The notes beneath the pieces are model-generated. The model searched no databases, was not told the DNA's origin, and saw only the letters and a program-made list of their open reading frames with translations. The position numbers and the translations under genes were made by a program. A stretch of 64,000 nucleotides of DNA, taken from contig JAWADS010000001.1 in assembly GCA_038998625.1 (NCBI GenBank), positions 9,222 through 73,221 on the forward strand, in the 5' to 3' direction. The DNA is from Candidatus Aenigmatarchaeota archaeon (GTDB lineage Archaea; Aenigmatarchaeota; Aenigmatarchaeia; CG10238-14; SCSR01). This document shows, in pieces, positions 38,015 through 56,899 of this stretch. The stretch's first letter is position 1. Every line of letters begins with the position of its first letter.

Positions 38015-38134
38015 TGGGGTCGGAGGGATTCGAACCCTCGTTAACCGGTTGCTTCTTACTTCTCATAGCTCCATATACTGGAGCCGGTTTTCTAATCATG
38101 GAAGATGTCTTAGACCTAGCTAGACCACGACCCC
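38015..38134 (-). tRNA. tRNA-Trp(CCA) with two predicted introns (about 17 nt after position 26; about 28 nt in anticodon loop)
   Basis: Minus-strand read: GGGGTCG-TG-GTCT-AGCTAGGTCTA-AGAC-A-[tcttccatgattagaaa]-ACCGG-CTCCA[gtatatggagctatgagaagtaagaagc]AA-CCGGT-TAAC-GAGGG-TTCGAAT-CCCTC-CGACCCC-A; perfect acceptor and T arms. Confidence 0.6.
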
Positions 38135-38235
38135 AGCCACCAGTGGGATTCGAACCCACAACCCCCTGATAACTTTCTGTCATTTTTCCAGTTATCAGGT
38201 ACAAGTCAGGTGCTCTACCGTTGAGCTATGGTGGC
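38135..38235 (-). tRNA. tRNA-Thr(UGU) with about 29-nt canonical-position (37/38) intron
   Basis: GCCACCA-TA-GCTC-AACGGTA-GAGC-A-CCTGA-CTTGTA[cctgataactggaaaaatgacagaaagtt]A-TCAGG-GGGTT-GTGGG-TTCGAAT-CCCAC-TGGTGGC-T; directly abuts tRNA-Trp. Confidence 0.7.
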
Positions 38236-43310: not shown

Positions 43311-43377
43311 ACAAAAACTAATTTTTTAAATGGATTGATTAATTTAATAAATTTCAAAGTAGATTTAGAATAATTTA

Positions 43378-43481
43378 GGGACGGTAGCTCAACCCGGGAG
43401 AGCAACTAAAGCTCTAAACCGCCTGAAGAGCGGTGCGTTGTGGGTTCAAAAGGCTCTTGCCTGAAATTCCCACCCGTCCCA
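43378..43481 (+). tRNA. tRNA-Phe(GAA) with two predicted non-canonical introns (13 nt after position 26; 17 nt in T-loop)
   Basis: GGGACGG-TA-GCTC-AACCCGGGA-GAGC-A-[actaaagctctaa]-ACCGC-CTGAAGA-GCGGT-GCGTT-GTGGG-TTCAAA[aggctcttgcctgaaat]T-CCCAC-CCGTCCC-A. Confidence 0.6.
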
Positions 43482-43500
43482 TATAATTAGAGAGATAAAC

Positions 43501-44067
43501 ATGGTAGAAAAAGTTTGGGAAGGAGAATTAATTGAAAATAGAGTAATAATTTGGGATAGTCAAGCTGTTAATCTTTATGATGATTCTGGTTATGGTAAGC
43601 CCTTACCAGAGGACAAACCTGATAGAGTCGAATTAGATTTGGTGGAAGCCGCTTACTTATTAGAAAAAGGTAAGTTAAAAGTTTTTTTAAAGGAGGATAA
43701 GAAGAAAAGATATCTTAACTTTAATGAATTAATGGAAATAGGAGCAAAAAATATAAATCAGTTTCACCCTCAATTTATAGTTTTTCGCGACTTAAGAGAA
43801 AGAGGATATCTTGTTAAAACTGGTTATAAATTCGGTGCGCATTTTCGTGTTTATGATAGAGGAGTTAAATTGAAAAGAGGTCCAAAAGCTCCTCATGAAC
43901 ATACTAAATGGGTAGTGCATGCAGTACCAGAAGAGGCTGCCTTTTCATTACCTGAAATGTCTAGAGCAGTTAGATTAGCACACAATATAAGAGCGACATT
44001 TTTATGGGCAGTTGTGGATAAAGAGTCAGATGTCACTTATTATCAAATAACTCGTGTCACACCTTAA
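43501..44067 (+). CDS. endA: tRNA-splicing endonuclease EndA
   Basis: LVEAAYLLEKGKLKV; catalytic region GYKFGAHFRVYDRG...HEHTKWVVHAV...RLAHNIRATFLWAVVD closely parallels archaeal EndA (Tyr/His/Lys triad). Confidence 0.8.
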   Translation: MVEKVWEGELIENRVIIWDSQAVNLYDDSGYGKPLPEDKPDRVELDLVEAAYLLEKGKLKVFLKEDKKKRYLNFNELMEIGAKNINQFHPQFIVFRDLRERGYLVKTGYKFGAHFRVYDRGVKLKRGPKAPHEHTKWVVHAVPEEAAFSLPEMSRAVRLAHNIRATFLWAVVDKESDVTYYQITRVTP

Positions 44068-45498: not shown

Positions 45499-45581
45499 TG
45501 GGCCTGTCCGGAATCGAACCGGAGTTTCGACCGTGTGAGGGTTTAACGCTTCGTCGCGTCCTACCACTAGACTACAGGCCC
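45499..45581 (-). tRNA. tRNA-Val(CAC) with predicted 12-nt intron inside the anticodon stem
   Basis: GGGCCTG-TA-GTCT-AGTGGTA-GGAC-G-CGAC[gaagcgttaaac]C-CTCACAC-GGTCG-AAAC-TCCGG-TTCGATT-CCGGA-CAGGCCC-A; removing 12 nt gives a perfect 5-bp anticodon stem. Confidence 0.65.
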
Positions 45582-49280: not shown

Positions 49281-49566
49281 TTAATAAAGAGAGCGGGAGT
49301 GCGCCCTTGGTTGTTACATATCTATAAACTATTTAACCCAAATCCCCTTCTCAGCTCAGTGACTTTCAAGCACCACACTAACTAGCTTATGGCTGCTTGG
49401 TTCCCCACCTGACCAGGTTCGCTAGTTAGTTGGCCCTGAAAGGCTGAGCCTCTTAGTTAGAGATTTGGAATAGCCTATAGATATGTACCGCCCAAAGGCT
49501 TCGACTCGGCCATCAGGACCATTTGCCGATGTAGGCGAGGCCCAGCCGCCCAGGTCTAACTCCCGC
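49281..49566 (-). ncRNA. signal recognition particle RNA (7S/SRP RNA)
   Basis: Minus strand contains CCTGGTCAGGTGGGGAACCAAGCAGCCATAAGC, matching the universally conserved SRP helix-8 motif (compare E. coli 4.5S CCAGGUCAGGUCCGGAAGGAAGCAGCC); 5' GCGGGAG pairs with 3' CTCCCGC; about 286 nt and GC-rich relative to surroundings. Confidence 0.7.
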
Positions 49567-55122: not shown

Positions 55123-55266
55123 TGCAGGGGGTGGGATTTGAACCCACGAAGGCACTAAGCCACGAGGTTTCTTATCTTCATCCTATCAGAGCTCAAGTAA
55201 ACCTCTATCTTGAGCTTCGCGCAACTTTAAAATCTCGCGCCATTGACCAGGCTAGGCGACCCCTGC
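55123..55266 (-). tRNA. tRNA-Leu(CAA) with about 58 nt of intron sequence (probably two introns flanking the anticodon loop)
   Basis: GCAGGGG-TC-GCC-TAGCCTGGTCAAT-GGC (Leu-type D arm)...CTCAAGA anticodon loop...TGGCTTAGTGCCTTC long variable arm-GTGGG-TTCAAAT-CCCAC-CCCCTGC-A; 144 nt against about 86 expected. Confidence 0.55.
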
Positions 55267-56008: not shown

Positions 56009-56094
56009 TGCGCCAGCCGGGATTTGAACCCGGGCCCTAAGCTTGGCAAGCTTCCACAACTTTTTATGTCCTAACCAGGCTAGACTACTGGCGC
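56009..56094 (-). tRNA. tRNA-Gly(GCC) with predicted 12-nt intron in the 5' half of the anticodon stem
   Basis: GCGCCAG-TA-GTCT-AGCCTGGTTA-GGAC-A-TA[aaaagttgtgga]AGC-TTGCCAA-GCTTA-GGGC-CCGGG-TTCAAAT-CCCGG-CTGGCGC-A. Confidence 0.6.
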
Positions 56095-56813: not shown

Positions 56814-56899
56814 AGCCCCGAGTGGGATTTGAACCCACGACCCAGTGCTTACGAGGCACTTAAGCTTAAATTTGCTCTACCAGACTGAGCTATCGGGGC
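56814..56899 (-). tRNA. tRNA-Thr(CGU) with predicted 12-nt intron between D arm and anticodon stem
   Basis: GCCCCGA-TA-GCTC-AGTCTGGTA-GAGC-A-[aatttaagctta]-AGTGC-CTCGTAA-GCACT-GGGTC-GTGGG-TTCAAAT-CCCAC-TCGGGGC-T. Confidence 0.6.

Follow-up and report, generated by a model that had tools for sequence, protein, structure and literature searches.

A tRNA-Phe gene with two predicted bulge-helix-bulge introns beside a probable single-gene, alpha4-like splicing endonuclease with alanine at the catalytic lysine position in Aenigmatarchaeota

How is a tRNA gene that is interrupted twice processed, if the endonuclease encoded next to it appears to consist of a single kind of small subunit? This question is raised by a locus of a Candidatus Aenigmatarchaeota archaeon (assembly GCA_038998625.1, contig JAWADS010000001.1, positions 9,222 to 73,221; the whole stretch of 64,000 nucleotides (nt) is further called the window), in which a tRNA-Phe(GAA) gene with inserts at two non-canonical sites lies just upstream of endA, the gene of a tRNA-splicing endonuclease of 188 amino acids (aa). 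An earlier note on this DNA assumed that such sites usually need an alpha2beta2 or epsilon2 enzyme, and pointed either to a second subunit encoded elsewhere or to an unusual enzyme. As argued below, it is highly probable that a two-intron tRNA-Phe gene stands here beside a single-gene, most likely alpha4-like EndA, which bears an L3-type loop and would handle both strict and relaxed bulge-helix-bulge (BHB) motifs. The tRNA-Phe gene is organised as follows:

43378 to 43481, + strand: tRNA-Phe(GAA) gene, 104 nt, three exons and two predicted BHB introns, no encoded CCA
43378 to 43404, + strand: exon 1, 27 nt (acceptor 5' strand, D arm, A26)
43405 to 43417, + strand: intron 1, 13 nt, ACTAAAGCTCTAA, position 26/27
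43418 to 43450, + strand: exon 2, 33 nt (anticodon arm ACCGC-CTGAAGA-GCGGT, variable loop, T-stem 5' strand, T-loop nt 54-59)
43451 to 43467, + strand: intron 2, 17 nt, AGGCTCTTGCCTGAAAT, position 59/60
43468 to 43481, + strand: exon 3, 14 nt (U60, T-stem 3' strand, acceptor 3' strand, discriminator A73)

With the introns in brackets, the segment 43378-43481 (+) reads GGGACGG-TA-GCTC-AACCCGGGA-GAGC-A-[ACTAAAGCTCTAA]-ACCGC-CTGAAGA-GCGGT-GCGTT-GTGGG-TTCAAA-[AGGCTCTTGCCTGAAAT]-T-CCCAC-CCGTCCC-A. The unspliced 104-nt form was called neither by ARAGORN nor by the Rfam tRNA model (in gathering mode, or in E-value mode to E = 10), and ARAGORN still called no tRNA when just one of the two inserts was deleted. 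Deletion of both gave a 74-nt product, called by ARAGORN as tRNA-Phe(GAA), with an acceptor stem of 7 base pairs (bp), a D stem of 4 bp, anticodon and T stems of 5 bp, the T loop UUCAAAU and A73; the predicted exon junctions join GAGAGCA to ACCGCC and GGTTCAAA to TCCCAC. The folding of the 104-nt sequence was better than that of its shuffled versions (z = -3.85, with 0 of 200 shuffles as good). The description in the earlier note, a 104-nt tRNA-Phe(GAA) with intact stems, a 13-nt insert at 26/27 and a 17-nt insert at 59/60, holds exactly in positions and boundaries; only its spacer of 20 nt has to be corrected, since A73 (43481) and the ATG of endA (43501) are separated by 19 nt.

The geometry of both inserts was analysed according to the rule (in agreement with the description of structure 9W2K) that a BHB motif consists of a 4-bp helix with a 3-nt bulge after each strand, and that the cut falls after the second nucleotide of each bulge. 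For intron 2, only a single register restores the tRNA. In it, 4/4 central pairs form together with 5 outer and 3 inner ones, and the motif is a strict hBHBh': the outer helix h is the T stem GUGGG/CCCAC, the central helix H is UUCA/UGAA, the bulges AAA and AUU are each divided after nucleotide 2, and the inner helix h' (GGC/GCC) is closed by a UCUU loop. The T-arm BHB conformer has a calculated energy of -12.1 kcal/mol and lies 2.3 kcal/mol above the minimum free energy structure (-14.4). For intron 1, four registers yield an identical spliced product; in the best of them CUCU pairs 4/4 with AGAG of the D-loop/D-stem 3' strand as the central helix H, the bulges CAA and AAA are again divided after nucleotide 2, and the inner "helix" is a single pair with a UAAA loop. 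Its outer helix has only 2 bp (G-G/C-C) and competes with the anticodon stem, and the 5' site lies within a 9-nt loop. Intron 1 is a relaxed BHB motif, effectively a bulge-helix-loop. In the precursor ensemble the AGAG/CUCU helix has a pairing probability above 0.9 and the D stem of 0.02, therefore removal of intron 1 is needed before the tRNA folds; as this intron sequesters a D-stem strand, its retention is incompatible with a normal tRNA.

These motifs change what has to be asked of the enzyme. The alpha4 and alpha'2 endonucleases cut strict hBHBh' motifs whatever their position, and intron 2 should be a substrate for every archaeal EndA. The suggestion of the earlier note that the T-loop position demands broad specificity should thus be reversed, as the demand comes from the relaxed motif of intron 1 and the T-loop intron is strict. 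A scan for strict BHB motifs across the whole window was also tried and dropped: it returned about 300 matches, about as many as in shuffled sequence, and is uninformative at a guanine plus cytosine (GC) content of 31%, so the BHB evidence rests on the fixed register inside tRNA genes.

For a comparative analysis, one genome per species was scanned, which provided 80 Aenigmatarchaeota endA loci (59-84% identity), or 81 together with the window. In 31 of the 80 other species, and hence with the window in 32 of 81 loci, endA is closely preceded on its own strand by a tRNA-Phe(GAA) gene; gapped alignment to the mature tRNA-Phe sorted the loci cleanly, with scores of either at least 87 or at most 38. 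Ten of the 32 linked genes are intronless and 22 carry between one and four introns (four in locus L031), 40 introns in total. They occupy about ten sites, near 9/10, 18/19, 19/20, 26/27, 30/31, 39/40, about 45/46, 53/54, 58/59 and 59/60, and none of the 32 genes has an intron at 37/38. All spliced products were called tRNA-Phe(GAA).

It should be stressed that the splice boundaries used to test the BHB register were set solely by restoration of the tRNA. With these boundaries, 29 of 39 inserts in the 32 genes showed 4/4 central pairs and four more showed 3/4, against only 0-5 of 39 with 4/4 pairs in controls in which the 3' register was slid by 1-3 nt. The remaining six misfits were alignment errors, and those inserts were placed by a BHB-guided search checked with ARAGORN; in five or six orthologues this search chose a 72- or 76-nt product over a 74-nt one with a 3/4 helix, and the boundaries there are uncertain by 1-2 nt.

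The 26/27 intron is common to 11 species (the window and 10 others), and in the others its inner helix has 2-5 bp (CCTT/AAGG, CCCA/TGGG, CCAAT/ATTGG, CTGAT/ATCAG, CCGAT/ATCGG and others). Pairing in this inner helix reaches 94.5%, and ten of its changes are double-sided, a result matched by 0 of 500 shuffles, while slid controls were 12-43% paired. The 13-nt intron of the window is, on this comparison, a minimal derivative of the shared one. Homologues of intron 2 were found in two loci: L038 has one of 15 nt at 59/60 and L031 one of 20 nt at 58/59, and their inner helices differ.

We infer that the two inserts are genuine spliced introns, as the earlier note had proposed; chance is excluded, because the BHB register, the polymorphism and the covariation are shown among relatives, and retained loops are excluded as well. 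An explanation in which the inserts persist in the mature tRNA as extra loops, or in which the gene is a decaying pseudogene with a functional tRNA-Phe elsewhere, could appeal to the failure of tRNA finders to recognise the gene and to the fact that splicing of this tRNA-Phe is itself deduced. It is nevertheless extremely improbable, given the exact BHB geometry and the covarying helices, the orthologues that lack the inserts or carry others elsewhere and restore the same canonical tRNA, the blocking of the D stem by intron 1, the conserved exons with all stems intact, and the similar interruption of all other tRNA genes in the window. Retention of the extra segments was among the outcomes that the earlier note had named as evidence against splicing, and the comparative data together with the blocked D stem speak against it.

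The second element of the locus, the endonuclease, shows the following features:

43501 to 44067, + strand: endA, tRNA-splicing endonuclease, 188 aa, N- and C-terminal domains (Pfam, TIGR00324 and fold match)
43852 to 43902, + strand: active-site segment Tyr118-His134, including the L3-type insertion G121-VKLKRGPKAPHE-H134, with Lys129 at 43885-43887
43993 to 43995, + strand: Ala165 codon GCG at the canonical catalytic Lys position (alignments)
44017 to 44031, + strand: L10-equivalent acidic loop D173-K-E175-S-D177, aligned with DADGD of M. jannaschii

The protein matches both Pfam domains (tRNA_int_endo_N, PF02778, 9.6e-18; tRNA_int_endo, PF01974, 2.1e-25) and TIGR00324 (endA; 113.7 bits with a cutoff of 59.6), and is 100% identical to the NCBI entry "tRNA-intron lyase [Candidatus Aenigmatarchaeota archaeon]". 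Its best solved sequence relative is the alpha4 enzyme of M. jannaschii (1A79, E 4.7e-30), which is also the top Foldseek match (TM 0.75/0.82) of the AlphaFold2 (AF2) monomer model (pLDDT 82.9). The open reading frame (ORF), both domains and the 1A79 match bear out the reading of endA in the earlier note as a gene that begins at 43501 and encodes a single-polypeptide, alpha-type enzyme of 188 aa. Length, two-domain structure, Tyr, His and Arg residues and the acidic L10 loop are common to both proteins. The M. jannaschii enzyme differs in its full Tyr115-His125-Lys156 triad, the lack of an L3 insertion, its narrow specificity and the mostly 37/38 introns that it serves.

The acidic L10 loop is required for assembly of the alpha4 tetramer. 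In the alignment, DKESDVTYY of the window's enzyme corresponds to DADGDIVYY of M. jannaschii, and D173 and E175 are invariant in the family; the C-terminal strand used in assembly is likewise kept. Since EndA has Tyr and His as well as the L10 assembly loop in one polypeptide, it carries the features needed in an alpha4 enzyme, and most likely it would form a homotetramer of the alpha4-like type. The epsilon2 architecture, with which the earlier note had proposed a comparison, is excluded by the length of 188 aa and the single unit (epsilon2 enzymes have three units, about 390 aa and the ASL loop).

Between Tyr118 and His134 the protein carries a 6-residue basic insertion, GVKLKRGPKAPHEH. In the alignment its L3 segment YDRGVKLKRGPKAPHEH, 6 residues longer than in M. 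jannaschii, faces YDIGVIPKKGKRSEREH of N. equitans and YFPGAKPIKENNEWIH of ARMAN-2. Among the bulge-binding residues, R158 is invariant and K110 is present in 73 of 81 sequences (equivalents of ARMAN-2 R275 and K228 by alignment and PMC12397907). A CSL-like (L1) loop was considered and rejected: a 4-residue N-terminal insertion (PLPEDKPD) is present at the site, but Lys38, which aligns with A. pernix K44, is unconserved.

In Kaneta 2018 (PMC5829648) the insertions of N. equitans and ARMAN-2 are named the L3 (Nanoarchaea/ARMAN-2-type) loop, and L3-bearing alpha4 EndAs are described, by bioinformatics only, in several DPANN lineages with strongly disrupted tRNA genes, and subunit type is reported to contribute least to specificity. 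The view that non-canonical sites call for alpha2beta2 or epsilon2 enzymes is therefore outdated, and the paradox stated in the earlier note is largely answered by existing work. The EndA of the window resembles this class in its single gene of about 180 aa with two domains, the basic insertion between Tyr and His, the DPANN host and the disrupted tRNAs. What sets it apart is the missing catalytic Lys, of which no mention was found in that paper: every member has Ala there, with correlated changes close by, HT for HS/HA and NIRA for S/G-VRK.

A lysine-rich insertion before the catalytic His is also found in the (alpha-beta)2 enzyme of N. equitans and the epsilon2 enzyme of ARMAN-2 (3IEY, 4FZ2, 9W2K), both of broad specificity and from hosts with split or multi-intron tRNAs; ARMAN-2 EndA cuts a relaxed T-loop intron in pre-tRNA-Cys (PMC3488258). 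Unlike the enzyme of the window, both retain the catalytic Lys and contain additional units or subunits, and in ARMAN-2 the broad specificity comes from another loop (ASL, K161), the L3 lysines being dispensable.

The most distinctive feature of the window's EndA is its active site. To our knowledge, splicing endonucleases from archaea to humans are regarded as sharing one universal Tyr-His-Lys triad. Here the triad is incomplete: Tyr118 and His134 are present and Lys is replaced by Ala165, which faces the catalytic Lys in five PDB alignments (M. jannaschii K156, M. kandleri, ARMAN-2 K282, N. equitans and A. pernix), so that the motif AHSVRK of Lys-bearing enzymes reads AHNIRA. All 81 family sequences have Ala165, and likewise Tyr118, His134, Arg158, Arg164 and the L3-loop Lys129. 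The "unusual enzyme" that the earlier note offered as one alternative was thus correct, by way of a feature which the note had not seen.

In a wider set of the 150 nearest representatives at 50% identity, Lys occupies the catalytic site in 133 of the 149 units that have both Tyr and His. Eight units share a GV[KN]xKxG[PQE]K loop, and all of them have Ala or Ser at the Lys site, together with Thr135, Asn162 and Ile163, where the others have Ala/Ser, Ser/Gly and Val. This group includes the EndA of a Nanohaloarchaea metagenome-assembled genome (MAG), with Ala at the Lys site and the loop GVNYKDGPK; a Diapherotrites EndA has Thr at the Lys site and a short loop, in which position 129 is nevertheless matched by a Lys (both are covered by entries P0134 and P0169). 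Nanoarchaeota-like loops (GIKPKKG) retain the catalytic Lys. A separate observation concerns P0122 (360 aa), a two-unit, alpha'2-like EndA whose C-terminal unit carries the loop GVKLKRGQK and in which both units have Ser at the Lys site.

No mention of a Lys-less EndA was found in the literature searched (with incomplete coverage), Kaneta 2018 (PMC5829648) included. While BHB introns and L3-bearing alpha4 EndAs in DPANN archaea are already known, the phylum-wide loss of the catalytic Lys appears to be new. We tentatively suggest, with more doubt than confidence, that the EndAs of Aenigmatarchaeota, and perhaps also those of Nanohaloarchaeota (one homologue) and some Diapherotrites (Thr), have a rewired active site, in which the transition-state role of Lys may have moved to the invariant Lys129 on the L3 loop, five residues before His134; jointly with this, and just as tentatively, the same mobile L3 loop may both complete catalysis and grip irregular bulges.

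The following sequence of events may be proposed. Each intron would pair with the exon just upstream of its own 5' splice site, forming a 4-bp helix with two 3-nt bulges; intron 1 would hold the D-stem 3' strand, so that the D arm could form only after excision, and intron 2 would pair with T-loop nt 54-57. EndA would cut after nucleotide 2 of each bulge, its basic L3 loop beside the active site allowing the alpha4-like enzyme to accept both strict and relaxed motifs. A ligase (the archaeal tRNA-exon ligase is RtcB) would then join the three exons into the canonical 74-nt tRNA, to which CCA would be added later. The cutting and joining of the RNA, the oligomeric state of EndA, the task of L3 and the replacement of the catalytic Lys by Lys129 are all inferred from sequence and its comparison.

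Several points weigh against this explanation. The canonical catalytic Lys is lacking, and a Lys-to-Ala change kills the ARMAN-2 (K282A) and A. fulgidus enzymes (PMC3488258, PMC12397907), while the ARMAN-2 L3 lysines are dispensable (K241A, K244A), which leaves a catalytic role for the loop without precedent. The L3 loop is of low confidence (flexible) in the AF2 model. The helices flanking intron 1 are almost nil (2 bp and 1 bp), and its predicted cleavage would rely on a broad specificity that is not known for any alpha4 enzyme with L3; splicing of the tRNA-Phe is itself a prediction. Finally, the search for a second EndA in this genome covered the 64-kb window of a contig of about 622 kb, about a tenth of the genome.

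The last point bears on the other alternative of the earlier note, namely that the 188-aa EndA is one subunit of a heteromer whose second EndA-like subunit, structural or supplying the missing Lys, is encoded elsewhere in the genome. Such a possibility could draw on the loss of the canonical Lys, on the small part of the genome that is visible and on the existence of a His-less, beta-like EndA family in Aenigmatarchaeota. With family and jackhmmer profiles, no second EndA-like ORF was found, either in the window or up to 3 kb from endA in 80 species, so the check for a paralogue that the earlier note had proposed came out negative at these loci. Among distant matches, two EndA-like proteins without the catalytic His were found (P0241 and P0257), and a search with P0241 led to a family of 162-176-aa proteins, several of them labelled Aenigmatarchaeota. 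These beta-like proteins lack His, Lys and the L3 "RGPK" segment, but retain a very conserved acidic L10 loop, VVDNDxDVTYY. In every context retrieved, the beta-like gene lies immediately upstream of a catalytic-type endA of 180-189 aa, and in two of three the pair stands between a Peptidase_M54 gene and a CBS-domain gene; the order in single-gene relatives is M54 - endA - CBS. The catalytic partner keeps Tyr, His and L3, and its L10 loop has decayed to VDEEGNVSYY or VVSESKEVKYY. The tandem pair, found in a sister clade (L082-L092), may be exemplified by locus L083:

L083, 3001-3519: beta-like gene
L083, 3524-4066: catalytic gene

In another tandem locus, L089, a free-standing LAGLIDADG_3 homing-endonuclease-like ORF (1634-2284, -) was found between Cytidylate_kin2-like and Peptidase_M54 genes; it is absent from the otherwise syntenic L090.

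In a neighbour-joining tree, the family of the window was monophyletic (99.5%), the beta-like clade received 100%, and this clade together with the tandem alpha genes nested with the single-gene sister family (79.5%); a position of beta outside all catalytic genes had 0.5% support. By this phylogeny, duplication and subfunctionalisation of endA arose in the sister lineage, the lineage of the window being single-gene at the loci searched, and the tandem pair has the appearance of an (alpha-beta)2-type endonuclease that originated independently and in place. A heteromer in the window's organism is thus quite improbable: beta-like genes sit directly upstream of their partners, a slot in which the window's family has none; the duplication falls within the sister family; Lys is absent from the beta-like proteins too, which are therefore unable to supply one; and the catalytic copies of the tandem clade lose the L10 loop, which the window's family keeps. 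Of the two alternatives in the earlier note, the unusual enzyme (Ala165) stands, and the second subunit is unlikely here, the tandem being known only in the sister clade.

The single-gene, alpha4-like reading leaves the question of whether the adjacency of the tRNA-Phe gene and endA has a meaning of its own. Two further segments are relevant here:

43343 to 43352, + strand: possible archaeal TATA box TTTAATAAAT, preceding the tRNA-Phe 5' end by about 30 nt (judged by sequence)
43482 to 43500, + strand: 19-nt spacer TATAATTAGAGAGATAAAC between tRNA-Phe and endA

The position of the putative TATA box fits a transcription start a few nucleotides upstream of G1. As the spacer is too short for a promoter at the usual distance, co-transcription is plausible, and endA is likely co-transcribed with tRNA-Phe in this genome. 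In many orthologous loci the spacer is longer and contains a CCTTTTAAAA-like box, and in many species a conserved (A)ACCTTTTAAAA box precedes the endA start by about 25-35 nt (L017, L019, L020, L024, L057, L062 and others); it is absent from the 19-nt spacer of the window. This box is likely endA's own promoter, with a TFB recognition element (BRE) and a TATA box, giving a leaderless mRNA.

It could be argued that endA is co-transcribed with, and perhaps regulated by, its own substrate, so that processing of tRNA-Phe would release or control the endA mRNA: the spacer could not accommodate a promoter at the usual distance, and the linkage is kept in 32 of 81 loci, several of them with spacers as short as about 18-30 nt. 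Such functional coupling is, however, unlikely, as 10 of the 32 linked tRNA-Phe genes are intronless, the TATA-like CCTTTTAAAA box between tRNA and endA in many loci suggests a separate promoter, and the closest relatives of the window's EndA have a metalloprotease gene, archaemetzincin-like (Peptidase_M54-type), directly upstream of endA instead. It is common for tRNA and mRNA to be co-transcribed and then separated by RNase P or RNase Z, and no special coupling is needed to explain this. Because intronless copies are linked too and the closest relatives are without the linkage, the adjacency was judged neutral; it is probably a conserved synteny in part of the phylum, a neutral gene order and not functional coupling.

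The demand for an enzyme that accepts relaxed and non-canonical motifs is evident also from the other tRNA genes. All seven tRNA genes of the window are interrupted, with ten introns, at most three of them at 37/38, therefore the endonuclease must routinely handle non-canonical sites. Besides tRNA-Phe, these genes are:

38135-38235, - strand: tRNA-Thr(UGU), 29-nt intron at 37/38
38015-38134, - strand: probable tRNA-Trp(CCA), two introns (about 46 nt, exact boundaries approximate)
45499-45581, - strand: tRNA-Val(CAC), 12-nt intron
55123-55266, - strand: tRNA-Leu(CAA), introns of 18 and 40 nt (boundaries of the 40-nt one approximate)
56009-56094, - strand: tRNA-Gly(GCC), 12-nt insert
56814-56899, - strand: tRNA-Thr(CGU), 12-nt intron

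Four tRNAs (Phe, Val, Gly and Thr-CGU) have mini-introns of 12-13 nt at the junction of the D stem and the anticodon stem. Those of Phe, Val and Thr-CGU look alike (ACTAAAGCTCTAA, ACGAAGCGTTAA and ATTTAAGCTTAA), their 3' part pairing with the D-stem 3' strand of the same tRNA; the 12-nt insert of tRNA-Gly (AAAAGTTGTGGA) is less regular, and no clean pairing register was found for it. Their recurrence suggests a preferred insertion site or intron spread. ARAGORN reported 56009-56094 (-) as tRNA-Phe(AAA), and after removal of the 12-nt insert this gene gives tRNA-Gly(GCC). It is also worth mentioning that the discriminator of tRNA-Thr(UGU) directly abuts G1 of the next tRNA (38135-38235 / 38015-38134, -), with no spacer.

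Short BHB introns at many non-canonical tRNA sites are reportedly present in Thermoproteales and other archaea. The multi-intron tRNAs of these archaea are similar to those described here in their D-arm, anticodon-stem and T-arm introns, in the presence of several introns per gene and in fast gain and loss between relatives. In contrast to the crenarchaeal (alpha-beta)2 enzyme with its CSL loop, the host is here a DPANN archaeon with a single-gene EndA, and a further difference is that the intron number of one orthologous gene varies from 0 to 4 over about ten sites, with 37/38 never occupied.

The gene order around the locus is topoisomerase VI B, KH-domain protein, hydrolase, eIF-1A, GT2 glycosyltransferase, tRNA-Phe, endA and ribosomal protein S17e. 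An archaeal signal recognition particle (SRP) RNA was identified at 49293-49566 (-) (Rfam RF01857, 136.9 bits), with about 40 consensus positions of the model deleted. Within the comparison set, Aenigmatarchaeota-type endA sequences of 79% identity were noted in L013 (DAIDAX01, titled 'bacterium') and P0028 (named Methanosarcinales), which likely reflects mis-binning or mis-labelling. The single MAG JBDRGB01 contains two tRNA-Phe/endA loci, L027 and L048, in which one tRNA is intronless and the other has the 26/27 intron; a bin of mixed strains is a more probable cause than paralogy.

Standard tRNA finders miss or mis-call genes of this kind, and "missing" tRNAs of DPANN archaea can be artefacts of multi-intron genes. 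The presence of zero to four introns at about ten sites of one orthologous gene is a dense record of BHB-intron gain and loss, and the tandem endA of the sister clade resembles a recent, independent repetition of the subfunctionalisation that has been proposed for (alpha-beta)2 enzymes. A whole phylum with Ala at the Lys site, under strong purifying selection and with an evident workload, constitutes a natural experiment on catalysis. If the relocation to Lys129 is true, the L3 loop, so far without a function, would gain a mechanistic role, and the relocation would explain how a single-gene alpha4 enzyme copes with nearly all tRNA genes being interrupted at non-canonical sites.

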